In this document: positions 6,953 through 25,766 of the stretch, piece after piece
Layout: each line of letters opens with the position of its first letter
How positions within the stretch are numbered: position 1 is the stretch's first letter
Origin: Bacillota bacterium
GTDB lineage: Bacteria > Bacillota > Clostridia > Saccharofermentanales > DTU023
Direction of reading: 5' to 3'
Assembly (NCBI GenBank): GCA_029570375.1
Contig: JAKPXB010000040.1
Coordinates: forward strand, 27,464 to 91,463
DNA length: 64,000 nucleotides
Position numbers and translations under genes: made by a program
The notes under the pieces: generated by a model
The model's database searches: none
The model's input: only the letters and a program-made list of their open reading frames with translations
Told to the model about the DNA's origin: nothing

Positions 6953-9754
6953 TCAGTCCCTGAGTTCGTCCAGTTTTGCCGTCTCGTCCGGCTGCTGCTT
7001 CGAGAGAACGGTTGTTTCCCCGAAATCAAGCTTCGATGGATCATACGCCTCGGCGGGCTGTCCGCCGCTCTGCCCCGGCGCACTGGCCTGCCCGGGTCGG
7101 TAAGGCGGGATGTAGGACTGGACAAAGGGCTGATTGGTTACGGGATGATCCGCCTGTATCGCGTTTTCCCAGGTTTCCGGTGAGAATCCTCTGCCATCCT
7201 CGCGGTATGCGTATGGCGGCTTCTCTGTCACCGCGCCGGCCGCAGGCACCGGCGCGCCCGGGGGATATGGGGGGGTAACAGGACCGGGACGGTATCCTCC
7301 TCCCGCCGGCGTCTGCGCATTCGGATACGGGGGAACAGCGGGGCCGGGGCGGTATCCTCCCGCCGGCGTCTGCGCATTCGGATACGGGGGAATGGCGGAT
7401 CCGGCAGGATAACCGGATGCCATCCGGTTATCGTTCGGCGCACCGGGATAGGCAGGTGCGCCCGCCTGAGCGCGCTTCCGGCGCTTCTTCGCCCGAACCG
7501 AAAGAATGAAAAAGACCGTGACAGCCGACAGGATTACCAGAAGCGCGGCCATCACATAGAGAACTAGTCTAATCTGCACGTTATTCATCATCTGCACCCA
7601 TCGACTTGTCGTCACATAGAAACCGGAGATTTCTCCTTCTGTCTGGTTACCCGCCGCATCGGCGCAGACAACGCGCAGATGGCGGGCGTTGTTTGAACCG
7701 CCCATGACGATGTAGTGGAAATCTTCTTTCCCTGAGACCAGTTTTTCGATCTCGAGCGCGTTCCACTCTTTTACCTTTTCTCCATCTAAATAAAGTATAA
7801 CATCGGAGAGCTTCACATTATCATCGGCGGTAAAAATAACATCGTAATCGCCTGCCGGGTAAGTTCCGCCTTTTTCAAGATTGAGGAACGATACGATTGG
7901 AGCTGTATTATCGACGATGAAGCTGATATCCATCCCCCCATGGCCGGATGAACTCTCCGATACGCGCCCAGCGCTGTCCTGGGAGCTGATGCTCAGGCGG
8001 TACAGACCGTCCTCTGTAAAATTGGCGCTGAAGATCCGGTACGCGTACTGGTAGAAACGGCCGTCCTCCCCGTCCTGCTCAAGACTGTAATCCACACCTT
8101 CTTTCAGTGTGGCGGAGTGATTATCTTTGAAGAGCGTCACTTGATTCGTCGCCAGCTTAAGGGCATTCGTCTCCGTCACAACGATATCCGGAGCCTTTTT
8201 CACGTATGATCCCGCCAGCGCTTTCGTTTCATCGCTGCATTCATACGTAGACCCGAACCGGTTGACGGAGAACCGGATCGTCTCTGATGTCGTATTGTTC
8301 AGCTTATCCTTCATCTTCACGCTGATCGTATAAAAATCGTCCATCTCCAGCGAGCGCGGAAACTCATGGTACTCCACACGCCCGCCTGTCGACTCCGTTT
8401 TCATCTCTTTAATGTTCAGTATGACTCCGCGGCGCTTCCCTGACAGCTGGATGTCCACACTCTCAGGCATCAGATTCGGGTCACTGAACTCGATGACAGG
8501 TGCGATCACCCCCTCACCTTTTTTATCGGATGTAATCCCGGTAACGGTGTAGGCCGGGGGAGTTGTGTCGATGATAAACGCCTGTTCGGCGAAGGACTCT
8601 GCCTGACGGCCGGCCATATCGCTGCAGCTGACCGCAAGAGAATACTCACCATCTTTATCATACAAAATCGTCGCGGTGTGCTTGTTCCCGTCACTCTGCC
8701 AACTGCTAACAACAGGCGGTTCAACTTCCTCCCCTCCCCGTCCGGCGCTCTGTGTGACAGTCACCAATTCGGGATCGAAATTCGCTTCGTCCACAGTGAT
8801 AGTCGCTTTCCGGAATTGATTGTAATAATTCGACATGACAGGCGCGGCGTCATCAAACCGGACATCCAGCACGGGGGCCGTACGGTCGATGAAAAACTCC
8901 TCATGAATGGGCGCCGCCGAAAGCCCGCCGGAATCTCTATAGGTTATGTCAACCGAGTAGGCTCCTTCTTCCGTGAACGGGATGGTCTTGGAAAAAGTGG
9001 ATACTGTCACTCCCTGGAAGGGGCTGCCGGCCGCGATTTCCTTGAAATCGTTCTGCCCGGGAAGCTTCTGCTTCACAGAAACTTTTACCAGAGTTTTGTC
9101 GAAATTAGCCTCTGTGACCTTGAGTGTCCCTGTCACCGCGTCGGTAAAGAACCCGCCCTTTTCCTTATTCTTATCGAATGTCAGCGACATGACAGGAGCA
9201 ACGCTGTCAATCACAAAGCTATCCAAGTATGATACAGGAGCTCCGGTTACACAGTCCGTACCCTCAATTTTCAGAATATAGCGCCCATCCTTCCTGAAGG
9301 CCAGCGTGCCTCTATATGTGTCCGCCTTACCACTGACCGGGCTGAACGCGATGTGTTTTCTCTCAATTGGCCCGTAGTCCTGGAAATAATAAGGGGTGTA
9401 TTCAACGCCGATATAAAAATCATCCGGATTAAAACCTGTATGTTTTATCTCGATCGTCGCCGTGCGCGGTTTTCTGTAGTATTCCCCGCCGAAAGCTTTA
9501 TTGTTGTCATAGGTAACCGTTACACTCGTTCCATGGCCGGTTTGAAGGCGAATGGGGAGATGGGACATGGGCGTTAACGGGCTCTGGCCTCCTATAAGAA
9601 GCCGCCTCGACTGCAGTCCCGCATGGTTTATATCCTCAACGACACCCGAATCAGCTTTTGCCGGCGCGCCCCCCGGCGCGTAAAAACACAGCATCAGACA
9701 GACGGCCCCTGCGAGCAAGGCCGCTCTCGATGCGCGATGTCTGCGGTTCTTCAT
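6953..9754 (-). CDS. Large type I membrane protein: signal peptide, several Ig-like modules, one TM helix, and a Pro/Tyr/Gly-rich cytoplasmic tail of about 180 aa
   Basis: Start re-set from 10222 to ATG 9754 (caaggagggc RBS at 9761-9770), because the upstream extension overlaps gene 9855-10412. The N-terminus MKNRRHRASRAALLAGAVCLMLCFYAPGGAPAKA is a signal peptide. Four modules end in FVIDSVAPV / FFIDRTAPV / FIIDTTPPA / FIVDNTAPI. The TM helix LVLYVMAALLVILSAVTVFFILSV is followed by KKRRKR. Confidence 0.8.
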   Translation of the reverse strand: MKNRRHRASRAALLAGAVCLMLCFYAPGGAPAKADSGVVEDINHAGLQSRRLLIGGQSPLTPMSHLPIRLQTGHGTSVTVTYDNNKAFGGEYYRKPRTATIEIKHTGFNPDDFYIGVEYTPYYFQDYGPIERKHIAFSPVSGKADTYRGTLAFRKDGRYILKIEGTDCVTGAPVSYLDSFVIDSVAPVMSLTFDKNKEKGGFFTDAVTGTLKVTEANFDKTLVKVSVKQKLPGQNDFKEIAAGSPFQGVTVSTFSKTIPFTEEGAYSVDITYRDSGGLSAAPIHEEFFIDRTAPVLDVRFDDAAPVMSNYYNQFRKATITVDEANFDPELVTVTQSAGRGGEEVEPPVVSSWQSDGNKHTATILYDKDGEYSLAVSCSDMAGRQAESFAEQAFIIDTTPPAYTVTGITSDKKGEGVIAPVIEFSDPNLMPESVDIQLSGKRRGVILNIKEMKTESTGGRVEYHEFPRSLEMDDFYTISVKMKDKLNNTTSETIRFSVNRFGSTYECSDETKALAGSYVKKAPDIVVTETNALKLATNQVTLFKDNHSATLKEGVDYSLEQDGEDGRFYQYAYRIFSANFTEDGLYRLSISSQDSAGRVSESSSGHGGMDISFIVDNTAPIVSFLNLEKGGTYPAGDYDVIFTADDNVKLSDVILYLDGEKVKEWNALEIEKLVSGKEDFHYIVMGGSNNARHLRVVCADAAGNQTEGEISGFYVTTSRWVQMMNNVQIRLVLYVMAALLVILSAVTVFFILSVRAKKRRKRAQAGAPAYPGAPNDNRMASGYPAGSAIPPYPNAQTPAGGYRPGPAVPPYPNAQTPAGGGYRPGPVTPPYPPGAPVPAAGAVTEKPPYAYREDGRGFSPETWENAIQADHPVTNQPFVQSYIPPYRPGQASAPGQSGGQPAEAYDPSKLDFGETTVLSKQQPDETAKLDELRD
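7291..7390 (-). repeat. Coding tandem repeat in the cytoplasmic tail (two copies of PPYPNAQTPAGG(G)YRPGP)
   Basis: ggtatcctcc(tcc)cgccggcgtctgcgcattcggatacggggg occurs at 7291-7333 and again at 7351-7390. The copies are identical apart from one 3-nt indel. Confidence 0.9.
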
Positions 9755-9854: not shown

Positions 9855-10412
9855 CTAATCGACGGGAATCGAACTGGCGTAAAAATAAAGTTCAAATTCC
9901 GGTTGTATCTCCAAATACCGGATCGCAGTATCTTCCCCTGCTGTCGGCACGGGCGATAACAACTCTGTGGCGGCGTTCGGCGCTTCTTCCGCGTGCGGCA
10001 TGTGAGGTTCCGCGGGAAACTCCGGGGCGGGTGCCGCCGGTGGAGGAGGCGGAGCCGGAGGTACTGGGGAAGAAGCGGCTGCCCGCGGTCCGGATATATC
10101 CGGAAGCTCTTCTGTTCTGATCTTCTCGGTCGCTGCCAGTCGGTCCGCGCCGGCACTGTCACGGCGGGACGAAGGATCCTTGCCTGGCTTTCTCCCGTGT
10201 TTTCTTTTTCCGCGGGATACACCGCCGCTCTCCACAGAGGCGGTGCCGCTCCTGCGGAGCGCCGCGACTTCTTTGCGTTCCTGTGATCCGGTCAGAAAAC
10301 CGATCACCTGGGGAATCCGGAACATGAAGAATGTGATGACGGTAAGCAGGAACATCAGGGCAGCGCCGCTATAAAGCACGAGCGAGATTGTTTTCATCTG
10401 TTCAAACGACAT
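9855..10412 (-). CDS. Small single-pass membrane protein with an Arg/Pro-rich linker; function unknown
   Basis: Start set to ATG 10412, 1 nt after the kinase stop, with gggggagagg upstream. The N-terminal TM is ISLVLYSGAALMFLLTVITFFMF, followed by a PPAPPPPPAAPAP tract and a short C-terminal segment ...IRYLEIQPEFELYFY.... Confidence 0.6.
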   Translation of the reverse strand: MSFEQMKTISLVLYSGAALMFLLTVITFFMFRIPQVIGFLTGSQERKEVAALRRSGTASVESGGVSRGKRKHGRKPGKDPSSRRDSAGADRLAATEKIRTEELPDISGPRAAASSPVPPAPPPPPAAPAPEFPAEPHMPHAEEAPNAATELLSPVPTAGEDTAIRYLEIQPEFELYFYASSIPVD

Positions 10413-10413
10413 C

Positions 10414-12120
10414 TCAGTCCTCTCCCCCGCTGACAAAAACGGCTTTTATCGCTTTCCGCGTTTCTATAATCCGGTCACGGATTTCCGATTTCATTTCCTC
10501 TGTCTTTCTCGTCGTTGTCGTCAGACCTCTGTTGATTTGACTGATCGTCTCACACATATTGAGCATGTCTATCTCCAATATGCCGTCCGCTTTAAACCTG
10601 CCGGCGTATTGCTGGAGGGCGCTTCTGCCGAGTTCCAGAAGTTCGAGCCGGACAATTTCGCTTTCTTCCTTATCCGCCGCGACCGTCCCGATCAGCTCTT
10701 TTAACTGATCGAAAAAAGGTTTGTACAGACCTTTGTCGGCGCCTTCTATCGTCTTGATGGCGATATCGCGGTAAAAAGTGCCGATTGCCGCGTATACGGT
10801 GGCCATCGTCGTCTTTTCCGTCTGTTCCGGGGCGTAGCGCACCGCGTCATCGAACCAGTCGATCGCGCCTTTCATGCGGGCGATCTGATTATCGCCCGCT
10901 TCGGTTCCGTAATCGTAGTAATACCAGAACAGTTTGCCGACTTCAAAGCAAAGGTCCGAGAAATCGCGTGGATTCCCCTTCAGATCCTTCAGATGCGTCT
11001 TGATCTGCCTGTTCAATATATTCGCCTCTTCGACGCTGAAGCGGGCGTCCCCCTCTTTGAACAACTGGATCATGCCGAGATACGCGTCCGGCACGCCGCC
11101 TTTATCCGGCATGTCGATACACAATTCGTAGAGCTCAAGCTTCTTCTGGTAGTCGGTTGACTGCTTCGCCTCGTCCAGTTTTTGCTCGTAATAATCGCTC
11201 GTCAGTTTTTGCGACTCCCGCCCGGTCCAGAAACCGCCGACGAGAAACGCGAGAGAAGTCAGCAGCGCGAGAGAAAATATCAGCAGGCGTCTTTTCTGTT
11301 TTCTGTGATAACGCTCATCGATTTCCTCGTAGTGTTCCAGCGCGTAGCGCAGATCGAAGCACTGCTGGTACCGATCCTCGGGATTTCGCTGCGTACACTT
11401 GAGCAGGATTTTCTCGAAACCGGAAGACAGACGCGGATTCACCGTACGGATCGGTTTCATTTCATAAGGGGGACTGCCGGGGTTAAGTCCGGTGACAAGA
11501 TGGTAGAGCGTCGCCCCCAGCCCGTAGACATCGGTGCGGGCGTCTGTCTGTCCCAGTCCGCCGAACTGTTCAGGCGCCGCGTAACCCACTGTCCCGAGAC
11601 ACGTTGTGTCTTCAACTTTTCTCTCTTTAAATTCACGCGCCGTACCGAAATCGATCAGCGCGAGGTTGCCATCCGGTTTCAGCATCACATTGGACGGCTT
11701 CATATCGCGATAAATGATCGGCGGCGTCTGCGCGTGCAGATAGGACAGAACATCACAGAGCTGCTTGCCCCATTCGATTACATATTCCTGTGGCTGCGCG
11801 CCGTATTCCGAGAGCACTTTTGAGAGAGGGATCCCTTCAATGTAATCCATCACAATGACCAGTGTGCTCTCATCTTCGATGATATCGATAATACTCGGCA
11901 GGTACGGATGACGCAGTTTTTTCAGCATCTCTGTTTCAACGATCAGCCCCTGACGGACAGCCTCGAAATCGAGCACGCCGTCTTTCCGGACTTCTTTGAC
12001 CGCCCAGGTTTTGTTCGCCTTCTCATTGATCGCCATGTAAACGATGCTCATGCCGCCGCGTCCGACCTCATGGAGAATGCGGTATTTGCCGTCGAGTAAT
12101 GCTCCTGTCTCGAGTGCCAC
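10414..12120 (-). CDS. Hanks-type Ser/Thr protein kinase with one TM helix and a helical, non-PASTA extracytoplasmic domain of about 270 aa
   Basis: 568 aa with a GTG start. Kinase motifs present are the glycine loop GRGGMSIVY, WAVKEV lysine, IIYRDMKPSN catalytic loop, DFG and APE. The TM helix LLIFSLALLTSLAFLVGGFW spans residues 279-298. Confidence 0.9.
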   Translation of the reverse strand: MALETGALLDGKYRILHEVGRGGMSIVYMAINEKANKTWAVKEVRKDGVLDFEAVRQGLIVETEMLKKLRHPYLPSIIDIIEDESTLVIVMDYIEGIPLSKVLSEYGAQPQEYVIEWGKQLCDVLSYLHAQTPPIIYRDMKPSNVMLKPDGNLALIDFGTAREFKERKVEDTTCLGTVGYAAPEQFGGLGQTDARTDVYGLGATLYHLVTGLNPGSPPYEMKPIRTVNPRLSSGFEKILLKCTQRNPEDRYQQCFDLRYALEHYEEIDERYHRKQKRRLLIFSLALLTSLAFLVGGFWTGRESQKLTSDYYEQKLDEAKQSTDYQKKLELYELCIDMPDKGGVPDAYLGMIQLFKEGDARFSVEEANILNRQIKTHLKDLKGNPRDFSDLCFEVGKLFWYYYDYGTEAGDNQIARMKGAIDWFDDAVRYAPEQTEKTTMATVYAAIGTFYRDIAIKTIEGADKGLYKPFFDQLKELIGTVAADKEESEIVRLELLELGRSALQQYAGRFKADGILEIDMLNMCETISQINRGLTTTTRKTEEMKSEIRDRIIETRKAIKAVFVSGGED

Positions 12121-12134: not shown

Positions 12135-12902
12135 CTAAAACGTTTTTATCGTAATGACTGAGATATTATCCCGTTCCTGCCTCTGTTTAACCAGATTGAT
12201 CAGCGCGCGCTCGGTTTCGCCGCTCACCTCCCAGGCGGTCAGCCGGTCAGGGTGAAGGGACTGGAATATTTCTTCTTCGCTGAGCTCATTGCGAAAGCCG
12301 TCTGTACACATCATGTAGACGGCATTTTCGCGCGTCTCTCCAAAAAAGAAATCGGGGTGCACTTCCTCCGACGCTCCGACACACTGGAGCAGAATATTGC
12401 GGCGCGGATCTCTTCTCGCCTCATCAGGTGTGAGTATGCCTTCCCGCACCTCCTGAGCGACGACCGTCTGGTCCTTCGTCAGCTGACACAGCTTCTCAGC
12501 GATTTCATAGGCGCGCGTATCGCCGACGTTGACGATCGAATACCTTTGCTGTGTTATCAGCATCGCCGTGAGCGTCGTACCTATCACATGTTTGCCGCGG
12601 GACGCAAACCGGGCGATCGCTCCGTTGCAGTATTCAATGAGGCTGTTCCAGTCGCTGCGGAGCCACTGATCAGGATGGTCCGAAGCGAGAACGCCCGCGA
12701 GTCTCTCGCCGGCCCAGCTGAAAAATGAGCGCACAACATACGCCGAAGCAATTTCACCGTAATCGAATCCCCCCATCCCGTCACAGAGAACAGCGAAAAC
12801 AACTCTCCCCTCGCCGGTTCGATAAACGCGGACATGGTAACTGTCCTGATTGGTCCGCTTCGTATTGCCGATATCCGTCGAGGCTGAAACGATAAATTCC
12901 AT
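12135..12902 (-). CDS. PP2C-family Ser/Thr protein phosphatase
   Basis: 255 aa. STDIGNTKRTNQDSY and LCDGMGG are typical PPM/PP2C metal-binding motifs. The gene ends 14 nt before the kinase start. Confidence 0.9.
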   Translation of the reverse strand: MEFIVSASTDIGNTKRTNQDSYHVRVYRTGEGRVVFAVLCDGMGGFDYGEIASAYVVRSFFSWAGERLAGVLASDHPDQWLRSDWNSLIEYCNGAIARFASRGKHVIGTTLTAMLITQQRYSIVNVGDTRAYEIAEKLCQLTKDQTVVAQEVREGILTPDEARRDPRRNILLQCVGASEEVHPDFFFGETRENAVYMMCTDGFRNELSEEEIFQSLHPDRLTAWEVSGETERALINLVKQRQERDNISVITIKTF

Positions 12903-12953: not shown

Positions 12954-14762
12954 TCAGCTCATGCGGAATTCAAATGATTCATTGGCGAGTCTTATCGAAT
13001 CGCCGTGTTTAAGTTCCGTCTCTTGATTGGCCGGAATCATCTGGCCGTTATGATAGGTATGATTTGTCGAATTTGTGTCGACCACGAAGAACCTGCCGTC
13101 GCGCGTAATAATATGGGCGTGGCTCCGGCTGATCGCCGTATTGTCCCCGATAAAATAATCGACAAAACTCTTCTCCTTGCCGATGCGGAAGAGCGGTTTG
13201 CTGAGGGGAATCCTCTCCTGATTGCTCTGGCGGATCAGATAGGGAAATGATTCCCGCGGTTCCTGCTTTACAGCTGCTCCAAGAACGGTTGTATCTTTCT
13301 GAGAGCTTCCCGTCAGCGATGTCGTCTCCCCGAAACTCACCGGCCCGGCGGCTGAAGGCGCCGGCGCGGGCATGGGCGGATACGCCGGTCTCTGTGCCGG
13401 AAAAGGAGGGGGAACGGGTGAAGGCGCCGGCTTCTGGGCAGGCGCGCTGACAGGCACGGGAGGCTGGAGCGGCTGTTTTGTTACCGGAGGCGCCGTCGGA
13501 TATTGTTGACGTGACCCCGGGATTTCCTCCTTCACCCCCGGAATCGAGAAAGGAACCGGCGGCGTGCCGGGCGCGGCTGGCGGTTCCGGCTTCCCGGGGA
13601 AACCGCCTCTCTGCGCGGCAGGAGCGGGCGCCGCACCTTGCTGGAATCCGGCTATCCCCGGAGGCGCCGCCTGCTGTTTTTTCTGCGCGTCGTAGATTGC
13701 CTTATTCTCCTTGCTGTAATGCATCATGAGATACATGAAAGACATTTTCTTCTCCCCGGATGCGGGCGCCGCGCTGCCTGTCCCTCCCGCGGGGGGCATA
13801 GGCTGCACGGGCTTCATCTGCGGAGATTTTTCTTTCCTTCGCCGGGGAGGACTTTCCGGGGCCGGAGCAATAGGCGGAATAGAAGGGGCTCCGGCGGCGC
13901 CTTGCGGCGAGGGCTGCATCCGCTGCCCGGGCGGCGGGGAGGGAGAAACGGCGTAGGAGGGGGCGGGAGCGCCGGCCGAAGGGGCTGGCGGCCTCGGTCC
14001 GTACGGCGGGATACTTGTCTGTGAGGCATCCACCGGCCGGGATTCAGCCGGCGGAGCACCGAAGTGAGGATCGCCGACCGGCGCGGCGCCGGCTGGCGGA
14101 GCGCCCGCATACGGCCCCCCGGTCAGCGGTGCACCGGCCGAAGGATACGGCGCCGCGGCAGACCCCTGGCCGATCGGATCACCCGCCAGATGGCGGAGAA
14201 AATCCCGGAAGTCCGGAAGGGAAAAGGCCTGCGGACGATTCATGAAGCTTATAATCTGGGCGACATAGCCGAGATTCTCAGATTGGTCAAATTGCGTCCG
14301 GAAGATAATGTCTTTCAGGAACAGGCTCACCTTTTCGTTGATATCGGCAGGTTTCCCGCCCGCTCCGCTCTCCGCCGCTGTGTCAATGACAGGAAGGCAG
14401 ACCATGTACGCGCGGCAGCTGGAGACATCGACGAAAATATAGTCCATCTCAAGGAGCAACGTGTCCGGATCGATCATGTACTCCTCCGCCCGCAGCAACG
14501 CGTTGGTAATGCCGGAAACCACCCCAAGGAGCTGTCTGCGGTTCACTGTTTCTGCGTAAAACTGGCGAAGGGATATCCGCGACGAAATATTGTATTTGAG
14601 GTATTGATTCTCATCTTTCTGTTGATAGATTGCGGGGAGCAGTCCTTCGATCTGATTGTGCGTAATCATCCCCAAACTGAGAGTGTCGATCCTGTCTGTA
14701 TCCGTTAACCGGTAAACAAGATACGAATGGGAACCCTGGCTGTCGTAGGTAAATGTGTACAT
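12954..14762 (-). CDS. FHA-domain protein: N-terminal globular domain of unknown function, long Pro/Ala/Gly-rich linker, C-terminal FHA domain
   Basis: 602 aa. The C-terminal ...FRIGKEKSFVDYFIGDNTAISRSHAHIITRDGRFFVVDTNSTNHTYHNG... carries FHA signatures (G-R, S-x-x-H, N-G). ETTS/DTTV motifs lie just upstream of the FHA domain. Confidence 0.85.
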   Translation of the reverse strand: MYTFTYDSQGSHSYLVYRLTDTDRIDTLSLGMITHNQIEGLLPAIYQQKDENQYLKYNISSRISLRQFYAETVNRRQLLGVVSGITNALLRAEEYMIDPDTLLLEMDYIFVDVSSCRAYMVCLPVIDTAAESGAGGKPADINEKVSLFLKDIIFRTQFDQSENLGYVAQIISFMNRPQAFSLPDFRDFLRHLAGDPIGQGSAAAPYPSAGAPLTGGPYAGAPPAGAAPVGDPHFGAPPAESRPVDASQTSIPPYGPRPPAPSAGAPAPSYAVSPSPPPGQRMQPSPQGAAGAPSIPPIAPAPESPPRRRKEKSPQMKPVQPMPPAGGTGSAAPASGEKKMSFMYLMMHYSKENKAIYDAQKKQQAAPPGIAGFQQGAAPAPAAQRGGFPGKPEPPAAPGTPPVPFSIPGVKEEIPGSRQQYPTAPPVTKQPLQPPVPVSAPAQKPAPSPVPPPFPAQRPAYPPMPAPAPSAAGPVSFGETTSLTGSSQKDTTVLGAAVKQEPRESFPYLIRQSNQERIPLSKPLFRIGKEKSFVDYFIGDNTAISRSHAHIITRDGRFFVVDTNSTNHTYHNGQMIPANQETELKHGDSIRLANESFEFRMS

Positions 14763-14795: not shown

Positions 14796-16103
14796 CTATC
14801 GGTTTAAACGGTAGAGCAGCAGGAGACGCCAAATCGCCTCTGTTTTCACGAAACAACTGCCTCTGCTGCTAAAATCTTTCGCGTCATCAAATGCGGCTTC
14901 TATGACAAGGTTGCCCGCGGAATCGATGAAGCCCCATTTGTCTCCGATTTTTACGGCAGCCAAACCGTTCGAGAAAGAGCGCGCGCTGTCGTATGCGGGA
15001 GGGATGACCATAGCGCCATCCGTATTAATAAAGCCCCATTGGCCGTCTTTTCTGACAGCCGCGAAGCCCTTGTCGGTAAAAAGTCTGGCGTCTTCAAATC
15101 TCTCCCCGCCCACGATCTCCCCTTCCAGATTGTAGAGAGCGAACAGATCGCCTTCTTTCGCGAAATAACGCTCATTCCGGTTGAAGAATTCTCTGTCGTC
15201 CAGAATAACATCCGCATACGCCTGCGCCGCAATCGGCGCTCCCGATGAATCTATTCTGATCCATTGGCCGCCTGATTTCGCGATGGCTGTCCCGCTGTTG
15301 ACCGCGGAGACATATTCGTATGGTTCCGACAGGATCTGATTATTGCGGTCAACGAGATAATAGTTCCCGTCTTTTCCCTCGGCCGGGAAGACATCGCCGA
15401 CCATAGGGCCGAGTCGTGAGAACCGTTCATCAATTTCTGTCACCTGTTCGTTATCCTTGTCGATAAAATAAGCGCCGCCATCGACGGAAACAACCGGCGC
15501 GAATCCGGAAGACGTAAACGGCCCCGCGTCTTTGTATTCAAATTTTATCAATTTTCTGCCGGTTTGGCTGATATAACCCCAGACACCTTTGTCATTCCGC
15601 ACGGGGCAGATATTCTGAGAAAAAAAGCCCACATCCTCGTAGCTGTCGTAGTCGAGCTTTGTCAGATACGCAAAACGGCTCCTCGTTTCCCGGATAAACG
15701 CAGAATCGACGGATCGTTTTTCCGCCACCTCCAGAATGTCAAAGACGCGGTCGTATTTTTTATCGACGACATAGGCGTCAAGCAGGCTGTCATAGGCTTC
15801 GGGCGCGACGGGGAAATCGGTGATAAACTGCTCACACCACAGCAGGCGCGCTTCGTCTTTCCCGACTGATTTGTAGAAATCCGCGACTTCCAGGCGTATC
15901 TCCACCGAATCTTTAATCTCAAGTGCCTTCCGATAGTTTTCGACTGCGTATTTGGCTACTTTCTTCCCCGCGAAATCACGCGCGGCCGCCAGCAGCTCTT
16001 CATATTGCGTATTTTTCGAAACGGCGGTGCTGATGAGCATCACCCAGGACAAAACGAGAAGCACGGCGAGCGCGATAGGAACGATGAGTCGATAATTTTT
16101 CAT
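14796..16103 (-). CDS. Membrane-anchored WG-repeat (KWG-type beta-repeat) protein with a TPR-like N-terminal region
   Basis: 435 aa. The N-terminal TM is LIVPIALAVLLVLSWVMLI. Repeats include GVWGYISQTGRKLI, GQWGFINTDGAMVI and DKWGFIDSAGNLVI. Confidence 0.8.
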   Translation of the reverse strand: MKNYRLIVPIALAVLLVLSWVMLISTAVSKNTQYEELLAAARDFAGKKVAKYAVENYRKALEIKDSVEIRLEVADFYKSVGKDEARLLWCEQFITDFPVAPEAYDSLLDAYVVDKKYDRVFDILEVAEKRSVDSAFIRETRSRFAYLTKLDYDSYEDVGFFSQNICPVRNDKGVWGYISQTGRKLIKFEYKDAGPFTSSGFAPVVSVDGGAYFIDKDNEQVTEIDERFSRLGPMVGDVFPAEGKDGNYYLVDRNNQILSEPYEYVSAVNSGTAIAKSGGQWIRIDSSGAPIAAQAYADVILDDREFFNRNERYFAKEGDLFALYNLEGEIVGGERFEDARLFTDKGFAAVRKDGQWGFINTDGAMVIPPAYDSARSFSNGLAAVKIGDKWGFIDSAGNLVIEAAFDDAKDFSSRGSCFVKTEAIWRLLLLYRLNR

Positions 16104-16115: not shown

Positions 16116-16790
16116 TTACATGCCGGACAAACCGATGGCGATACACGCGCCGATCAAAACACAGGGCGCCAGTGAGATCGAATCCTTGCGCGTCTTTCGC
16201 CTGGTCAGGAGCAGATAGACCGCGTAGAAAAAGGAGACGATCAGAGAAAAGAATACGGCGTTGGCTGCCCCCCAAAGCCCCTGATACAGCCCCATGACAA
16301 AAAACAATTTGACATCGCCCATACCGACGCTGTTTTTCATGACGAATGAAATGATTAAAAAGAACCCGCCGACCAAAACGGCGCCGAGTGCCGCCGATTT
16401 CAGGATCACAAGCGCTCCCGCGGCATCAGTCATCAGCTCCAGACCGGCATAGACGACCCGCATCGCGATGGCGGCAAGAATCAGTGTATTGGGGATGATG
16501 TGGCGGACATGATCGATGGCAGCCATCGGAACAATGAACATCACAAGCGTCAGCAATTTGACGTGGTGCAGCAGCCCCGAAGCGGGATAGAGAGCCGTCA
16601 GCGAAGCGGCGAGAGCAATCCCCAGGAAAAGTGATATCGCGAGATACAGCTTGCGGTTTCGTCCCCGCGGAATCAAATGCGGCATTCTCAAGGCGGAGAA
16701 AGACTGACCGCTCAGTTTGCTGACGGTGAACGCGTACCCGAAAAAGGTCAGGACGAGAGTCAGAATGATTTCAATGATTAAGTGCTTCAC
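16116..16790 (-). CDS. tadV: A24-family prepilin peptidase (TadV/CpaA-like)
   Basis: Polytopic membrane protein with an Asp motif in NSVGMGDVKLF. The start is probably GTG 16790, directly after a ggagaaaggc RBS. The alternative ATGs at 16847/16841 lack an RBS and overlap the upstream gene. Confidence 0.8.
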   Translation of the reverse strand: MKHLIIEIILTLVLTFFGYAFTVSKLSGQSFSALRMPHLIPRGRNRKLYLAISLFLGIALAASLTALYPASGLLHHVKLLTLVMFIVPMAAIDHVRHIIPNTLILAAIAMRVVYAGLELMTDAAGALVILKSAALGAVLVGGFFLIISFVMKNSVGMGDVKLFFVMGLYQGLWGAANAVFFSLIVSFFYAVYLLLTRRKTRKDSISLAPCVLIGACIAIGLSGM

Positions 16791-16816
16791 GCCTTTCTCC
16801 TCAGCTATGGCCCCTG

Positions 16817-17716
16817 TCAGCGTCTGTCGCCCTGCATCCATCCGCATGTGACCGCTGTCTGGTTGAAGTCAAAATGGATATTTAACGGCAGCAGCGGAAT
16901 CATCTTCACCCGGTAGCGGACATTGACGACGATATAATCCGATCCGCCCGGGAACAAAAGGGAGCTTCTGAAATCCAATCCGTTTAAATAACTGTCGGCG
17001 CGCGGCAGAACGCGCATCGATCGCAGAAAGCTCTCCGGTTTCCCGCCTTTCGCATCGGTCAGATGCTTCTTGATCATCGCTGTGACGACCGGAGCGGCGA
17101 CGCGGCTTGACGTGTCCAGATCGAGATCGCCCCCGGCCGCGAGCTTTGCGAACCCAAAGAGCATTTTCACCGGATTCGAGGCGATGTTGTCCGCGGCTTC
17201 GCCGATTACTCCGCCGGATGTCTCGACCTTTCCTCCCTGGATGATACCGTCCCACGCTTTTCCGATATCGCTGTCGTTTATCTCAAAACTGTTTCCGCCG
17301 GCAATGCCCTGAATCGCTTGAAATACTTTGGGCACTTCCGACGAGATATTCTTGTTATTGGCTTCCTTTTTGTCTTTATATTCCCCGGAGCGTATCAGTG
17401 AATACAGGTAGCTGTATTCGGATATCTCCCGCGCTGTCGAATTGATGGCGAAAGCCATGCGCGCCTGAATTAAACAGACGTTGATCACCGATAACAGCGA
17501 GATAATCATAAAGATGAAGAAGCTGAGCGATATGATGGCTTCGATCGTGATACTTCCGCTTTCACGACAGCGCACTCTCACACCCGCGCGGTCCGCTGCT
17601 TTCGCCATACGGGACATCGGAGAAGACAATGAGCGATTCCTCACAGGTGCGCGCGGGAGAAACGTTTCCGGCCCGGCGGACGCGCTTCTCTTCTCCCCAT
17701 TCTTTGCAGACGGCAT
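16817..17716 (-). CDS. TadE-like pseudopilin / pilus assembly protein
   Basis: Start re-set to ATG 17716 after a ggaaggaggaag RBS, 28 nt downstream of the preceding stop. It has a prepilin-like motif ...RESG/SITIEAIISLSFFIFMI (Glu at +5) followed by a hydrophobic helix. Confidence 0.7.
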   Translation of the reverse strand: MPSAKNGEKRSASAGPETFLPRAPVRNRSLSSPMSRMAKAADRAGVRVRCRESGSITIEAIISLSFFIFMIISLLSVINVCLIQARMAFAINSTAREISEYSYLYSLIRSGEYKDKKEANNKNISSEVPKVFQAIQGIAGGNSFEINDSDIGKAWDGIIQGGKVETSGGVIGEAADNIASNPVKMLFGFAKLAAGGDLDLDTSSRVAAPVVTAMIKKHLTDAKGGKPESFLRSMRVLPRADSYLNGLDFRSSLLFPGGSDYIVVNVRYRVKMIPLLPLNIHFDFNQTAVTCGWMQGDRR

Positions 17717-17744
17717 GCGTCTTCCTCCTTCCTGGCGTGAGGCG

Positions 17745-20700
17745 TCAGTATCCCCGGGTCGCCTTGTAATCGATCGTGTACCACGATGTATCGTCCAGCG
17801 GGTCTCTGAATGTATCGGCGAACAGCGGCAGGGGCATGAGCACGGGTTTAACGAGCACCTGCGCTTCCACTGAATAATAGGCGCCCGCCCTGCGGATAAG
17901 ATAATTGTCATCCCCGGTGACCAGATGGACATTGAGCTGAATCACATCGGCGGTTCGGAGCAGAATGCCCGTACGATTCGTGAACATCCCGAGAAGGAGG
18001 AACAGCCTCATATAATCGCTGTAGCGGAAAGACAGAAGAGATGATATGCCCGTGCTTTCGCCGGACGACTTCCTGCCTTCACCGCCGCTGCCGCCGGACT
18101 GCCCGTCCGATCCGAAGAACCCGTCGATGCTGCTGTCAAGTTCTTCCTTCAATTTCTCGGCGCTTTCGTTCATCGCATCTTTCGCCTTCTTCATCGTCTC
18201 TTCTTTGTACCTTTTAATCTCCTCGGACCCCTCCTGGAGTTTTTTCTTCACGGCTTCTGAGATCTCGCTAAGGAACGTGTTCATTTCCTCCGCGAGCGCT
18301 TCGATAGAGCCCACCTCACGTTTCTCAATCCCGCGGATTTTTTCGATCGAGCTCCTGATATACTTTTCTTTAAGCATTTCGACCGTTTTCTTCTTCGCGA
18401 TATAGGAGATATCCGACTTATCTTCGTCCAGCGTTCCGAGCCACTCGTCCAATTTCTCAGAGACATATTGTTCCGCGTTAAATCCCGGCTCTCCTTTCGA
18501 TTCTTCCGTAAGCGCGTTCTGGATAAGAGACAGCATTTTCTTGACGGCTACATTCGCGTGGCGCGCAATGAGATCGTCAAAGCTCTGACTGACATGCGCC
18601 TCTATCTCTTCCCTGTTATCTTTTATGAAGGCTTCCGCCTCCTCGCCGCCTTTGTCGAGGTATTCGCCCAGCTTATCTGCGGCTTTGTTGATGGCTTTAT
18701 CGGCGGCATCTTTCAGAAGATTGGATGCCTCGCTCTTTGCCGCGTTCATCAGCCCTCCGGGCGTGACCACCCAGGAGTCTTTCTTGTGGAAAAGGGGAAC
18801 GGCCTTCCCTCGCGCCAGATTCCCCAGATCAATCGCCGATTGTATCAGCGCGAGGAGTATCTGAATCGAGGCCTGAACAAGCGGTACGGGGAGGACACCC
18901 CACGAGGCTGCCGAAATGGGCGTCGCGATCGAAAGCGCGAACGTATTGGTTTCCATATCGGAAAAGGCAAAGATGACGTTCAGACCGAATCGAATGGCGA
19001 AAATGGAGCTGTAGGCATGCGTCACGTTCGCCGATCCCGTCCCCCCGTAGAGGATGTACTCGATCTCGCGGTCGTAGTGGTAGTTGTTCACTTCATTAAT
19101 CAGATGATTCCGGAGAGTCTGCGGTTTACCATCCAATTTTTTTTCTGTATGCTCGTTCTGTATGGTATCGAAACTGAACATGCTGAGGAGGTAATCGGTG
19201 ACATAATAGGCGTCGCGCAGATCTTCCGACGATCCGCTCAGAATCTCGGCAACTCCCGAAAACATGCCGGCGAGTCCGGTACTGGTGCTCTTGGCCACGT
19301 TGTCAGAGTCGTTGCTGTATTCGCCCGAAGCTGTCGCGGAGGACGGAACGCCTTTCGTCTTGGAGGGAAGACTTGTTTCAGAGAGGCTTTCTCCTGTTTT
19401 TTCAGGGTCTTCCCTTTCGGTTACCGCCTTTTCTTTCTCCTTCTTCGTTTCGTTTTCGCCGGTTTTCTTCATGCTTTCCTTGAGCTTTTCGCCTTCTTCA
19501 TCTTTATCGGTGCGGAAAGTACAATGGCGTTTCGTTTCATTTAATTCCTTGGGATCCGAATGCTTCCTGTAAAGATATTGATAGAAAACAGGTTGATACG
19601 ACCCGAACAGTGAAAGGCCGGTCTTGGGGTCGCTCATCCAGGAAAAATCGATCACCGGCGCTTCGAATAATCCGTCGAATGAGCTCTCCGCCCCTTCTCT
19701 TAGCGGTTTTTTCAGCTTTGATCTGTTATTAAAATATTCATCCCCGAGTTCGCGGCGAATGAGGCTTAAGAACTTATTACCGCCTTCATCGTAGCCGGTA
19801 ATATCGCCGACGAATTCTCCGGCATACCTGAACTGATTGATTTGTTCTAATACTTGTGCCATCCGCTTTCTGAGTGATTCGACGCGGTTGTACAGTTCAG
19901 CGACCTGGTCCTTGTCGTACGTGTCTTTGATATCTTTGATATCCGCTTTATCCTGTTCCGCCAGAGATGAAAGCGAAAGGGCCGGGTCTTCCGACGAATG
20001 CCGCCACTCTTCCCTCTTCTGTATGAGCGCGCCGCCGTTGAGGGAATCATATACGTCCTTGAGAGCGTCCGCCGCTTTCTGCAGATAATCTACGGCATCC
20101 TCGAATTTCTCCTGATACATCTTTGCTTTCCACGTGACCTCTTTGATCTCTTTGTTGAGACTGGATCTCTCCGTCCGCCCTGAGATCCGAATATTTGTCG
20201 TCAATTCGGCAAGAGGCTGGAACGCATCACGCGTCATCCGCATATCCTGTTCGTAATAATCCTTGATGCTTGCCGCGAACTCCGCCGCGGGCACAGTTCT
20301 TCCGCCTCCCTCAACCTCTACGGAAAAGTCAAGCGACTCATCATCCGCCCACAGCATCGCGACGGCAAAATCCTGGTATTTCCGATAGCGGTCGAGTGGG
20401 CCGTTTTTTATGTACTGTCGAAGACTCTCGGGTGATAATTGCCCTTTATACAACTGCGCCACATACTGGATATCGTAAAACTCTGTACCGATCGTGGAAG
20501 ACTTCGGCAGCCCGAGCGACGCGAGTGATGTTTTTATGTCAGCGATTTTCTTGTCGCTGTAAACACCGCGCATATCATTCATCAGGAGCTGCATCTGAAT
20601 GATACCGGGCCTTCTGCCCGCGTCGTAGCCGCCGGGGTAGAGAGAGACAAAACTGTTGTACTTCTCTCCCCAGCATTCTAATTCCCAGGTCTCGCTTTCC

Positions 20701-21521
20701 ACCGGATTGCCCTTCCCGTCCGTCAGCCTGTATGGACGCTTTGTCAGCAGGAGCGGTGTCTCGGCGGCTATCTGCGTTTCGTAGACATCCATGATGGTCC
20801 GGACATGAAACTCTCTGAACTTCGATTCCAGCCCCGCAAAGAATCCGTCATTCGCCACCCTTCCGATGAACTGGTAGACGAGATCGTTATACTGCGAGAG
20901 ATTCTTCCATGTCTCGCGGAGTTTTTTATTGAGCCGTTCTTCTTCCTTGAAGTAGGACTGGCGCTGGTCGACAAGCTTTGTCTCCTTGCTGACATTGTTG
21001 AAGCTGTTCAGTGCCGACAGAAACCGCAGTCCCGTGTTGATCGGCGTGCGGTATTTCATAAACTCGACGATCTGGCGCTCGAGGACATCGGGATTGGCAA
21101 GCGAACCATCCGGAGGGATATAACCTTTGAAATCTCCCAGCTTCATGTTAAGGATATCGTCCGCGTCACTGTCGCCATGCGGCAGATCGCGGAGCTGCGC
21201 CATAATCTGCGCTGTAAGCGCTCCCGCTTCGCCCGCGCCTACTCCGTAGGAAATAATACTTTTGTTGTAAAAGGCCTTCAGTTCGTCCAGAAGTTTTTCG
21301 TGGTCCTGCGTCGTGGCAAAAAGCCCGTACAGCTCTTTCAGCTGCGTGTCATACTGCGTCAGCGCCGTATTCAGCGCCAGATCCCCCGCGGACGCCGCCA
21401 CACCGCGAGCGAGAGAGATCCGGCTCACGTCAACAAAAAAGGCGCTGCAAGTCAGCATGGGCACAAGAATAATGACCAGAAAGATCGTTACGGCGCCTTT
21501 ACATCTTCTGATGTATTTCAT
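17745..21521 (-). CDS. Giant TadG-like protein (N-terminal TadG-type anchor, about 1200 aa of helical/acidic sequence, hydrophobic segments near residue 880)
   Basis: Start set to ATG 21521 (gtgagggagtc RBS). The N-terminus MKYIRRCKGAVTIFLVIILVPMLTCSAFFVDVSRISLARG resembles the TadG N-terminal domain. Lys/Glu-rich coiled-coil-like stretches and a GGSGGEG linker are present. Confidence 0.7.
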   Translation of the reverse strand: MKYIRRCKGAVTIFLVIILVPMLTCSAFFVDVSRISLARGVAASAGDLALNTALTQYDTQLKELYGLFATTQDHEKLLDELKAFYNKSIISYGVGAGEAGALTAQIMAQLRDLPHGDSDADDILNMKLGDFKGYIPPDGSLANPDVLERQIVEFMKYRTPINTGLRFLSALNSFNNVSKETKLVDQRQSYFKEEERLNKKLRETWKNLSQYNDLVYQFIGRVANDGFFAGLESKFREFHVRTIMDVYETQIAAETPLLLTKRPYRLTDGKGNPVESETWELECWGEKYNSFVSLYPGGYDAGRRPGIIQMQLLMNDMRGVYSDKKIADIKTSLASLGLPKSSTIGTEFYDIQYVAQLYKGQLSPESLRQYIKNGPLDRYRKYQDFAVAMLWADDESLDFSVEVEGGGRTVPAAEFAASIKDYYEQDMRMTRDAFQPLAELTTNIRISGRTERSSLNKEIKEVTWKAKMYQEKFEDAVDYLQKAADALKDVYDSLNGGALIQKREEWRHSSEDPALSLSSLAEQDKADIKDIKDTYDKDQVAELYNRVESLRKRMAQVLEQINQFRYAGEFVGDITGYDEGGNKFLSLIRRELGDEYFNNRSKLKKPLREGAESSFDGLFEAPVIDFSWMSDPKTGLSLFGSYQPVFYQYLYRKHSDPKELNETKRHCTFRTDKDEEGEKLKESMKKTGENETKKEKEKAVTEREDPEKTGESLSETSLPSKTKGVPSSATASGEYSNDSDNVAKSTSTGLAGMFSGVAEILSGSSEDLRDAYYVTDYLLSMFSFDTIQNEHTEKKLDGKPQTLRNHLINEVNNYHYDREIEYILYGGTGSANVTHAYSSIFAIRFGLNVIFAFSDMETNTFALSIATPISAASWGVLPVPLVQASIQILLALIQSAIDLGNLARGKAVPLFHKKDSWVVTPGGLMNAAKSEASNLLKDAADKAINKAADKLGEYLDKGGEEAEAFIKDNREEIEAHVSQSFDDLIARHANVAVKKMLSLIQNALTEESKGEPGFNAEQYVSEKLDEWLGTLDEDKSDISYIAKKKTVEMLKEKYIRSSIEKIRGIEKREVGSIEALAEEMNTFLSEISEAVKKKLQEGSEEIKRYKEETMKKAKDAMNESAEKLKEELDSSIDGFFGSDGQSGGSGGEGRKSSGESTGISSLLSFRYSDYMRLFLLLGMFTNRTGILLRTADVIQLNVHLVTGDDNYLIRRAGAYYSVEAQVLVKPVLMPLPLFADTFRDPLDDTSWYTIDYKATRGY

Positions 21522-21549
21522 TGACTCCCTCACCCCTTTCCATTGCGCG

Positions 21550-22218: not shown

Positions 22219-22343
22219 ACGAAGGCCTCGCTTTCCGATCCAGCTACTGGTTATTTGTTCGCTCAATGAACAGACCGGCAAATCAAAAGAACTGCCACCG
22301 GTTCATCCGCTCCGCGCGTTTTCAAGACGAAAGAGCCGTCCCT

Positions 22344-22559
22344 TTACTCGATGGCGGTCTCGGCCTTTCCTCTGATCAAATTGATCAAGTCTGTCAGTAA
22401 TGCTCCGATCGCCTTTCTGAAGATGACAGCCAATGCGATCGCGACGCCGATTAACACGACGATGGCGACGACATTGACCTCACCTTTTTCATCCCTGAGC
22501 AGCTTGTTGAGCCGTCCCGCGACGATTCCAAAGAAAAGTTCAATACGTTGCTGTAACAT
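22344..22559 (-). CDS. flp: Flp/Fap-like type IVb pilin (Firmicutes Flp1-like form)
   Basis: 71 aa with a taggaggg RBS. It has a charged leader ...LLRDEKG followed by the hydrophobic EVNVVAIVVLIGVAIALAVIF. It sits between the tadC-like and tadE-like genes. Confidence 0.75.
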   Translation of the reverse strand: MLQQRIELFFGIVAGRLNKLLRDEKGEVNVVAIVVLIGVAIALAVIFRKAIGALLTDLINLIRGKAETAIE

Positions 22560-22600
22560 GGTTAACCCTCCTAAGTATGACCTGTTAGAATGAATATTCC

Positions 22601-22619
22601 GGCAGCCTTCGGGGCTGCC
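22601..22619 (-). other. Intercistronic GC stem-loop about 40 nt upstream of the pilin start codon
   Basis: ggcagcc (22601-22607) / ggctgcc (22613-22619) with a 5-nt loop, inside the 124-nt tadC-flp gap. No U-tract on either strand. Confidence 0.3.
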
Positions 22620-25762: not shown

Positions 25763-25766
25763 AAGA

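Follow-up and report, generated by a model that had tools for sequence, protein, structure and literature searches.

We asked why the tail of an Ig-like membrane protein encoded beside a Tad pilus operon ends in a heptapeptide, FGETTVL, that is nearly repeated as FGETTSL in a forkhead-associated (FHA) protein. The window analysed here is a whole stretch of 64,000 nucleotides, and the genes, domains and motifs for which coordinates are given all lie on its minus strand. A sequence-only reading had proposed that the tail motif is a kinase substrate and a docking site for the FHA protein, coupling an extracellular Ig-like array to the pilus machinery. By translation and orthologue comparison, FGETTVL is a real, conserved copy of an E-T-T-x-L repeat of ~11 residues, with the core [G/N/D]-E-T-T-[V/L]-L and with Thr(0) and Leu(+3) as its essential positions. 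We consider it probable (roughly 65%) that this repeat is the kinase-target and FHA-docking unit of a Thr-phosphorylation cassette fused to a Tad operon of gut Clostridia.

A heptapeptide shared by two proteins

The Ig-like protein is a type I membrane protein of 933 aa (6953..9754) with a Big_3_3/Big_13 ectodomain (Pfam); it starts with MKNRRHR at 9754, its length is backed by a 100% identical 933-aa database protein, and its orthologues span 895-931 aa. Its C-terminus, translated from window:6953-7102 (minus strand), reads ...YDPSKLDFGETTVLSKQQPDETAKLDELRD up to the stop codon, and tail motif copy 1, FGETTVL, occupies residues 911-917 (7004..7024, by translation and orthologue alignment); of the span 7001..7024 originally assigned to it, the first three nucleotides are the following Ser codon. 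A degenerate second repeat, DETAKL (6971..6988), keeps E-T-x-x-L 11-12 residues past FGETTVL, where orthologues carry [ND]ETT[VI]L. FGETTSL lies at residues 477-483 of the FHA protein (linker motif 1, 13314..13334), 6.3 kb away, and is followed 11 residues later by DTTVL (linker motif 2, 13281..13295), so that the near duplication seen in the sequence-only reading is borne out at both ends.

In a six-frame translation of the whole 64 kb, [DE]TT[VS]L occurs three times, always in the Ig-like and FHA proteins, and FGxTT is found in the same two proteins plus one out-of-frame, stop-terminated match. Given the amino-acid make-up of the long ORFs in the window, chance predicts 1.7e-4 occurrences of FGETT[VS]L and 0.08 of [DE]TT[VS]L. 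The codons had also been called similar, which does not hold as evidence: the two motifs share 14/21 nucleotides and use the same codon for just two of six shared residues, in unrelated flanks, and we therefore attribute their likeness to constraint at the protein level. Wobble differences and one replaced codon (Val/Ser) likewise led us to reject a DNA-level duplication or gene conversion between them.

The tail that carries the motif is predicted to lie inside the cell, as had been supposed, because a cleavable Sec-type signal peptide (~residues 1-34, ..APAKA/DSG) is combined with a single TM helix (~residues 730-752, 7499..7567, by hydropathy and charge count) and a following RAKKRRKR; seven K/R fall within 15 residues after the helix and two before it. 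This predicted cytoplasmic tail is 181 aa long and Pro/Ala/Gly-rich (6956..7498), unlike the short basic tail of a sortase substrate, and no LPXTG-like pentapeptide was found near the TM helix, so sortase anchoring was rejected. Besides the motif, orthologue alignment reveals a second conserved island, PY.YR....FS.E.WE..I..D.P.TNQ (7130..7216).

Conservation of the C-terminal motif proved to be strict within one clade and lacking outside it. The window's clade alone has the long tail (4/4 orthologues), which ends in 1-3 motif copies; DPSKL[DN]FG[DE]TT[VL]L and ET..L repeats are kept at the extreme C-terminus of all four, F, G, T, T and L of FGETTVL are invariant in the tail alignment, and the orthologues that conserve the motif are only 56-59% identical. 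Ig-like proteins of most other lineages have a tail of just 8-24 aa, which lacks the motif and closes with a short KRRKK stop-transfer sequence. The copy on the Ig tail may thus be accessory, since the tail is absent from most lineages. NCBIfam has no model for the Ig-like protein or for the small membrane protein described below, and members of the Ig-like cluster are annotated only as hypothetical proteins of uncultured Bacillota bacterium.

The repeat on the FHA protein, a small membrane protein and the kinase

The FHA protein (602 aa, 12954..14762; Pfam) carries a kinase-like (pseudokinase-like) N-domain, DUF6382 (14178..14762), a disordered linker of ~300 aa and an FHA domain (12987..13187; PF00498, E 8.4e-14, 52 bits against a cutoff of 20.7). 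In canonical FHA domains the phosphate- and peptide-binding residues are G-R, S-x-x-H and N, the Arg contacts the phosphate, and the ligand has pThr with a hydrophobic residue (L/I/V) at +3. Here, S545, R546, H548 and N567 do not vary across 28 aligned sequences, an equally invariant Lys (K529, in IGKEKS) replaces that Arg throughout the family, and BLASTP pairs SRSH of this protein with SRRH of GarA. DgcB, Rad53 FHA1, OdhI and GarA are the PDB sequence matches of the domain, the top 50 Foldseek matches are all FHA domains, and the closest solved relatives by sequence and fold (these four and FhaA) all bind pThr; DgcB, solved in complex with the phosphorylated tail of the same protein (PDB 6hc0/6hc1), is the best match by both. 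NCBIfam scores stay below their cutoffs (OdhI, 24 bits against 200; TIGR03354 VI_FHA, 32.6 bits against 120).

The linker motif is present in 119/120 DUF6382-FHA homologues, ~45 aa ahead of the FHA domain and usually twice, typically as NFGETTVLGG..IGETTVL and overall as TT-x-hydrophobic; G478, T480, L483, T491, V493 and L494 are invariant among 28 FHA-protein sequences at 40-69% identity. Judged across these homologues, FGETTSL is a family-wide tandem linker motif and not particular to the window's protein, which points to recognition of self or in trans, on the model of GarA or DgcB. AlphaFold2, which does not model phosphate, gives no hint of docking, because in the full FHA protein both the linker motifs (468-502, including GETTS at residues 478-482, ~45 aa N-terminal of the FHA domain) and the FHA loops 529-546 have pLDDT < 50. 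The DUF6382 domain is modelled at pLDDT 90, and its Foldseek matches (Pan3, Tribbles, many kinases and the TraF N-domain) suggest a kinase-like fold.

A small single-pass membrane protein of 193 aa (9855..10436) is encoded between the kinase and Ig genes; it has an N-terminal TM (10320..10361), a predicted cytoplasmic tail that is basic and then Pro-rich, and a conserved C-terminal strand, EFELYFYASSIPVD. Among small TM homologues drawn from 80 related species-level loci, 38 of the 47 recognised by BLAST, and seven more divergent ones at the same position, carry one to six copies of xETT[VLI]L. The looser [DE]T..L was observed 132 times in these tails vs 6.7 ± 2.5 in shuffles. Among 147 instances, in which the pattern fixes T(0), L occupies +3 in 95% (chosen from an allowed hydrophobic set) and E occupies -1 in 85% (from D/E/Q); T makes up only 59% at the second residue, on which no constraint was placed; repeat spacing peaks at 10-12 residues. 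On this comparison it is the small single-pass protein that usually bears the motif at the membrane, not the Ig-like protein. In the window's clade this small protein has nothing but single-Thr forms (ATELLS, AETQLLS, GETQPLS or PTEVLS), and the window's own relic is ATELLS (9954..9971). A frameshifted FGDTTGI ending in a stop (9901..9915) was rejected as a hidden motif of this gene, as the in-frame C-terminus is the one that orthologues conserve.

The kinase and PP2C genes lie between the Ig-like and FHA genes. The kinase is a Hanks-type Ser/Thr kinase with a helical extracellular domain (10414..12120; catalytic loop YRDMKPSN; TM helix 11227..11286), and its own activation loop, EDTTCLGT (11590..11613), carries an ETTxL-type motif. 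In 63 orthologues the loop reads ..[AE]DTTCLGT.GYAAPE or ..GETTGIGT.., and the catalytic loop YRD.KP.N and DFG/APE are intact, so that the kinase is apparently active. The PP2C-type phosphatase (12135..12902) retains the metal-binding motifs DGMGG, GDTR, TDG and DNIS, and kinase and phosphatase are always encoded together.

A candidate phosphorylation cassette in a Tad operon

Beyond the FHA gene lies a conserved WG-repeat protein with an N-terminal TM (14796..16103) and then a Tad/Flp-type pilus block (16116..26876). The block encodes a TadZ-like ARD/ParA protein (25767..26876; PF21194, 1.8e-44), CpaF/T2SSE (24524..25762; PF00437, 8e-61), TadB-like (23574..24431) and TadC/T2SSF (22684..23577) proteins, a weakly supported candidate Flp prepilin of 71 aa (22344..22559), a TadE-like protein (21550..22281), a DUF5702/TadG-like protein (17745..21557), a further ORF (16817..17932) and an A24 prepilin peptidase (16116..16847); Pfam supports the TadB/C platform (PF00482), the TadE-like pseudopilin (PF07811) and the prepilin peptidase (PF01478). 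The order Tad-WG-FHA-PP2C-STK-smallTM-Ig recurs in 80 species-level loci wherever the contig is long enough, and the operon was matched in ~300 of 185,579 species-representative genomes, with carriers across Clostridia that include Lachnospiraceae, Oscillospiraceae, Ruminococcus, Roseburia and Acetatifactor, among others. Over ~730,000 aa of locus ORFs, the motif occurs outside the FHA-linker, tail and loop segments at about the chance rate. We regard as background in structured or extracellular regions, at about that rate, a FGETTVL in a DUF5702-like protein (locus L037) and copies of ETTVL in a SIMPL-like ORF (locus L015), the N-lobes of kinases and the ectodomains of Ig-like proteins.

The motif is thus shared by the Ig tail, the FHA protein, the small membrane protein and the kinase loop, and therefore is most likely a phosphorylation and FHA-docking site; this is the best reading because Thr(0)/Leu(+3) fits the pT-x-x-L recognition of FHA domains. 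We reasoned that the cassette would consist of the membrane Hanks kinase, the PP2C phosphatase, the DUF6382(kinase-like)-FHA scaffold and the small single-pass membrane protein. The receptor kinase, with its own D/E-T-T-x-L/I activation loop, would phosphorylate the first Thr of the motif in disordered segments, namely the FHA linker (two copies), the small-protein tail (one to six copies in most lineages) and the Ig C-terminus (in the window's clade), and the FHA domain would bind the resulting pT-x-x-L. The linker copies may lock the scaffold in a closed state or drive its polymerisation, in the manner of GarA or DgcB, while the copies on membrane proteins would recruit it to an envelope complex beside the pilus machine, and the phosphatase would reset the system. 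Phosphorylation, FHA binding and an effect on the pilus are what we infer here. In the window's tail peptide, the proposed kinase target KLDFGETTVLSKQQPDETAKL, Thr914 is the proposed phospho-acceptor of FGETTVL and Leu917 its +3 residue.

In the window's organism, canonical copies appear to have passed from the small protein to the Ig-like protein, which would make for a direct link between the surface Ig array and the FHA scaffold. The suggested coupling of that array to the pilus through the tail is possible in this one clade and is limited to it, because Ig tails of most lineages are short and motif-free. The local system could also be partly decayed, given the degenerate copy in the small protein and DETAKL as the second repeat of the Ig tail. 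A more far-reaching possibility, which we hold only tentatively and with some doubt, is that ET(T)xL repeats make up a pThr code, multivalent and portable, that forms a kinase-triggered FHA cluster or condensate at the Tad base and was moved onto an Ig-like adhesin in the window's clade. Arrays of up to six copies on membrane tails would then meet two per FHA scaffold, the array would move between operon partners during evolution, and, if this were true, a direct outside-in link would run from the surface Ig array to the pilus motor.

Other explanations account for parts of these observations. It is unlikely, though worth weighing, that the motif is phosphorylation-independent and read by another operon partner, serving as a plain tether or through beta-strand addition. 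DUF6382, the kinase (through a docking or pseudosubstrate site), PP2C and the TadZ/CpaF ATPases are candidate readers. With its (pseudo)kinase-like fold, DUF6382 could accommodate a peptide that looks like a substrate, and the motif does look like the activation loop of the kinase; in the FHA domain, Lys takes the place of the canonical Arg, and the passages on T7SSb in PMC11217815 report an FHA-pseudokinase contact that is phospho-independent. However, the motif has what is classically the mark of an FHA ligand, an invariant Thr with Leu(+3), and stands beside an FHA domain that retains S-R-x-H and N; an active-looking kinase and a phosphatase are always co-encoded. We consider it rather improbable that the copies are kinase substrates that act without FHA docking, as a phosphate sink or decoy or as a charge switch on conformation or condensation; up to six copies in disordered tails, and their resemblance to the activation loop, would suit such a role, but it leaves unexplained why Leu(+3) is strict, why the FHA linker and the Ig tail have the F-G prefix in common, and why two copies are always found ~45 residues from an FHA domain.

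Topology rests on prediction, and Pro-rich, Thr-containing segments are common in wall-spanning regions of Gram-positive bacteria, so the tail might be extracellular and its Thr-Thr motif an O-glycosylation or protease site or the like. We give this very little weight, as signal peptide, single TM helix and RAKKRRKR put the tail inside, homologues end in a short stop-transfer tail, and the motif also occurs in the FHA protein and the kinase activation loop, both cytoplasmic. A likeness by chance or composition could appeal to a motif of just seven residues in two low-complexity regions, but it is effectively refuted by the 1.7e-4 expected in the window, by retention of the motif in orthologues at 56-59% identity and by its family-wide presence.

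Related systems

The kinase-substrate and FHA-docking reading has one of its closest parallels in the A. tumefaciens T6SS, where PpkA phosphorylates TssL at Thr14 and Fha binds pThr14, activating the T6SS (PMC3953482). Both systems encode an FHA scaffold inside an envelope-nanomachine operon, together with a PP2C phosphatase and a Hanks kinase of the membrane, and in both (here by prediction) the FHA protein docks on pThr in a cytoplasmic stretch of a membrane component. The machine in the window, in contrast, is a Gram-positive Tad/Flp pilus (with TadZ, CpaF, TadB/C, TadE and a prepilin peptidase as neighbours), its scaffold has a kinase-like DUF6382 domain, and its docking site, as read from sequence, is a repeated, family-wide ET(T)xL on three partners and the kinase loop.

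At the level of the motif, the resemblance is to GarA/OdhI and Bdellovibrio DgcB, which also have E-T-T-S/V on a disordered extension of the FHA-bearing polypeptide; in GarA an ETTS motif lies on an unstructured extension next to the FHA domain, and its first Thr is the main acceptor (PMC5448819). GarA is, however, a metabolic regulator of ~160 aa with a single motif, whereas the window has a 602-aa scaffold with two linker copies and further copies on membrane partners that could compete with them. The GarA/OdhI class comprises small actinobacterial regulators of TCA and glutamate enzymes, while the window's protein is from Bacillota, with a kinase-like N-domain and in a Tad operon.

The same four protein types recur in TsxD/TsxF/TsxJ/TsxK of T7SSe, f and j, for which the relevant passages of Garrett et al. 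(2024, PMC11217815) describe a membrane STK, a PPM phosphatase, a DUF6382-FHA protein and a further protein that crosses the membrane once and is partly unstructured on the cytoplasmic side, and propose regulation by phosphorylation. In the passages of that paper that a term search yielded, no motif is described. Loci of those types are marked by an EssC/TsxC FtsK-type ATPase and a WXG100 protein; the window has no EssC-size ORF (frames above 650 aa are the DUF5702 protein, the Ig-like protein and a 679-aa plus-strand frame), and its cassette sits in a Tad operon with WG-repeat and Ig-like proteins. The EssB pseudokinase and EssC of T7SSb likewise pair a kinase-like fold with an FHA domain at a Gram-positive secretion machine, on its cytoplasmic side, but there, according to the same passages, they are separate proteins with an FHA domain that lacks the pThr pocket and binds independently of phosphorylation, whereas here they are fused and most pocket residues are kept. 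Full-text literature searches on the motif (ETTVL, GETTVL, DTTVL or ETTLL, alone or together with FHA) and on Tad in combination with forkhead-associated and Firmicutes returned nothing relevant, and DUF6382 turned up in no paper but the one on T7SS variants.

The mechanism proposed here would bear on the post-translational control, in Gram-positive gut anaerobes, of Tad pili, which are colonisation factors. The cassette known from T7SSe/f/j loci, found here beside a Tad pilus, suggests a general regulatory plug-in for Gram-positive envelope machines. The proposed mechanism makes predictions at the level of single residues: Thr914 of the Ig tail and T480 and T491 of the FHA protein would be acceptors, each with Leu at +3, and K529 and S545 would form part of an FHA pocket for which cis and trans ligands are likely to compete.

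A motif pair within one minus-strand operon

Translation bore out the motif pair noted in the sequence-only reading. The Ig-like protein, whose minus-strand reading frame ends at 6953, has the C-terminus ...YDPSKLDFGETTVLSKQQPDETAKLDELRD*, in which residues 911-917 (7004..7024, -) are FGETTVL; in the FHA protein, residues 477-483 are FGETTSL and residues 490-494 are DTTVL. When the entire window was translated in six frames, [DE]TT[VS]L matched three times, all within these two proteins, and FGETT[VS]L is expected 1.7e-4 times given the amino-acid composition of the window's long ORFs. The codons of the two motifs had also been described as similar; this likeness is weak: only 2/6 shared residues use the same codon (nucleotide identity 14/21) and the flanks are unrelated. 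The nucleotide likeness is imposed by the shared amino acids.

Both genes are members of one minus-strand operon, which encodes TadZ-like ARD/ParA (25767..26876), CpaF (24524..25762), TadB-like (23574..24431) and TadC (22684..23577) proteins; a candidate Flp prepilin (22344..22559) between TadC and the TadE-like gene (21550..22281); a 1270-aa DUF5702/TadG-like protein (17745..21557); an unnamed ORF (16817..17932); an A24 prepilin peptidase (16116..16847); a WG-repeat protein (14796..16103); the 602-aa DUF6382 and FHA protein (12954..14762); a PP2C phosphatase (12135..12902) with DGMGG, GDTR, TDG and DNIS motifs; a Hanks-type kinase (STK) with a TM helix and helical ectodomain (10414..12120); a small single-pass (small TM) protein of 193 aa (9855..10436); and the Ig-like protein (6953..9754). 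The 71-aa candidate prepilin has a Flp/type IV prepilin-like N-terminus (..DEKG/EVNVVAIVVLIGV) and a weak TIGR02537 match (E 0.0026), and is likely the major pilin.

The only annotations on database copies of the window's proteins, which derive from an uncultured Bacillota MAG, are hypothetical, FHA or kinase protein. In a genome collection, 300 loci were confirmed, of which the scan gave 80 at species level, with hosts among Lachnospiraceae, Oscillospiraceae, Acutalibacteraceae, Ruminococcus, Roseburia, Acetatifactor and others; BLASTP with the window's proteins recovered the order Tad genes - WG - FHA - PP2C - STK - small TM - Ig wherever the contig was long enough.

Topology and conservation of the Ig-like tail

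Read mechanically, the ORF of the Ig-like gene extends upstream as far as a GTG codon at 10222. A start at 9754 (MKNRRHR) gives 933 aa, a form matched by a 100% identical database protein and by orthologues of 895-931 aa. Pfam matches are to Ig-like domains (Big_3_3, 5e-13; Big_13). The N-terminus is a Sec-type signal peptide (..APAKA/DSG), and one additional hydrophobic helix (~730-752) is followed by RAKKRRKR, with seven K/R within 15 residues on the C-terminal side of the helix vs two on its N-terminal side; no LPXTG was found in the protein. From the signal peptide, the single helix and this charge bias we predict a type I topology with the 181-aa, Pro/Ala/Gly-rich C-terminal tail in the cytoplasm, in agreement with the side proposed earlier.

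We assessed conservation in 54 homologues, including three full-length close orthologues (56-59% identity). All three keep DPSKL[DN]FG[DE]TT[VL]L at the extreme C-terminus, and the close orthologues carry one or two extra [ND]ETT[VI]L units at 11-residue spacing; in the window the second unit has decayed to DETAKL, retaining E-T-x-x-L. When three tails are aligned, F, G, T, T and L followed by E, T and L are invariant. A second conserved island of this otherwise Pro-rich region (7130..7216, -; PYAYREDGRGFSPETWENAIQADHPVTNQ) reads PY.YR....FS.E.WE..I..D.P.TNQ in orthologues. In all more distant homologues (37% identity or less), and in the Ig-like proteins of other loci, the chain is far longer, often >2000 aa, and its C-terminus lacks the motif, consisting of a TM helix and an 8-24-aa basic tail only. 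The motif is thus kept by the close orthologues, but the tail that bears it is restricted to one clade. The Ig-like protein exceeds 2000 aa in most lineages (related loci L005, L011, L063, L064, L072 and others in other genomes) vs ~900 aa in the window's clade (the window and loci L002, L081 and L083); over half of the ectodomain has therefore been lost as well in the long-tail clade.

Motif copies in FHA linkers, small membrane proteins and kinase loops

Among the best 120 DUF6382-FHA homologues, 119 have linkers with TT-x-hydrophobic motifs, typically of the form NFGETTVLGG..IGETTVL and located some 40-55 residues N-terminal to the FHA domain; the TT motif is a family-wide feature of these proteins. 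Aligning 28 sequences that are 40-69% identical to the window protein showed G478, T480, L483, T491, V493 and L494 to be invariant, the ~300-residue linker around them being otherwise unalignable; the constant elements are the first Thr and the Leu at +3.

Tandem xETT[VLI]L units (1-6 per protein) occur in 38 of the 47 recognised small single-pass homologues, most of the remainder having ET[x][VL]L variants, and seven further divergent small TM ORFs at the same operon position also carry the motif. In these tails, predicted to be cytoplasmic from a basic juxtamembrane segment, [DE]T..L was observed 132 times vs 6.7 ± 2.5 in shuffles. At motif positions, L(+3) stands in 95%, E(-1) in 85% and the second Thr in only 59%, and repeat spacing peaks at 10-12 residues. 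The small protein of the window's clade has single-Thr forms only (ATELLS, AETQLLS, GETQPLS, PTEVLS), the complement of the motif gain in the Ig tail. Small single-pass proteins (loci L003-L080) also end in a conserved strand-like F.[IV]E.E[IM].F..S.EIIE (EFELYFYASSIPVD in the window; 9858..9899, -), which differs from the Thr repeats and might serve as another docking element.

The kinase has its G-loop, Lys, YRDMKPSN, DFG and APE motifs. Its activation loop, EDTTCLGT (11590..11613, -), shares the D/E-T-T-x-L/I sequence of the putative substrates, so the presumed autophosphorylation site matches them; most of 63 orthologues read ..[AE]DTTCLGT.GYAAPE and a subgroup ..GETTGIGT... Elsewhere in ~730,000 aa of ORFs the motif occurs at about chance rate (Ig ectodomains, kinase N-lobe, DUF5702 helix).

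A putative phosphothreonine docking scheme

We consider it almost certain that ET(T)xL is a functional short linear motif, and put the probability that it acts as a pThr-FHA docking site at roughly two in three. The FHA domain scores above the Pfam threshold, and comparisons of sequence and of fold both place it closest to solved pThr-binding domains: first Bdellovibrio DgcB, whose crystal structure includes the protein's own phosphorylated N-terminal tail, then Rad53 FHA1, OdhI, GarA, FhaA and EmbR. Pocket residues S545, R546, H548 and N567 are invariant (S-R-x-H and N kept). The canonical phosphate-binding Arg of the G-R pair is replaced throughout the DUF6382-FHA family by an invariant Lys, K529 (IGKEKS; 13167..13184, -), which keeps the positive charge yet brings real uncertainty to the predicted pThr binding. 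The AlphaFold2 model, with a confident N-domain, a disordered linker including the motifs and low-confidence FHA loops (529-546), speaks neither for nor against docking. DUF6382 modelled alone (residues 1-195; 14178..14762, -; pLDDT 90) has a predicted protein-kinase-like fold and is probably a pseudokinase, with Foldseek matches to Pan3 pseudokinase, Tribbles, many kinases and the TraF N-domain of the pIP501 Gram-positive T4SS (query-normalised TM-score about 0.5-0.65).

We infer a scheme in which the receptor kinase would phosphorylate Thr(0), the first Thr of ET(T)xL units, and the FHA domain would bind pT-x-x-L; the two linker copies could then give intramolecular closure or head-to-tail assembly, the membrane-protein tails would recruit the FHA scaffold to the envelope complex, and PP2C would reverse the process. 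In this organism canonical copies are located on the Ig-like protein, and its first unit begins with F-G, as the leading unit of the FHA linker typically does, suggesting direct competition of tail and linker for the same site. The sequence-only reading of a kinase substrate and FHA docking site in the Ig tail is supported in part and much broadened, the motif being family-wide in FHA linkers and present also in small TM tails and the kinase loop. That such docking couples the Ig array to pilus activity and is physiologically important we propose tentatively, at somewhat under even odds.

The logic of this scheme matches the T6SS threonine-phosphorylation pathway, the closest case being A. tumefaciens, in which Thr14 of TssL, a membrane protein, is a target of PpkA and once phosphorylated is bound by Fha (PMC3953482), and also the GarA/OdhI ETTS switch (PMC5448819). 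TsxD/F/J/K at T7SSe/f/j loci are the same four protein types, with phospho-regulation suggested and no motif mentioned in the term-matched passages of PMC11217815. DUF6382-FHA is reminiscent of T7SSb, where the EssB pseudokinase pairs with the EssC FHA domain; here the two are joined in a single protein. The locus itself is neither a T6SS, there being no T6SS core genes among the neighbours, nor a T7SS, there being no EssC-size ORF. Neither the ET(T)xL motif nor an FHA/kinase cassette in Firmicute Tad operons turned up in full-text literature searches. The locus is a novel variation on an established regulatory type, with residue-level predictions.

Next to the Tad operon, a divergently oriented gene (27331..28377, +) encodes a 348-aa surface protein in which an unbroken 23-Thr run, the product of a long ACN repeat, precedes a C-terminal TM anchor; this protein may act as a stalk that spans the wall or is O-glycosylated. 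Also beside the pilus locus, a polytopic membrane protein of 636 aa (28462..30372, -) is a candidate for a membrane-bound regulator of transcription, its C-terminus being LuxR-type HTH-like by eye (..TKRETQVIYYILQGFLYKQCASEMNISVETVKFHAGNAYRKLGV).
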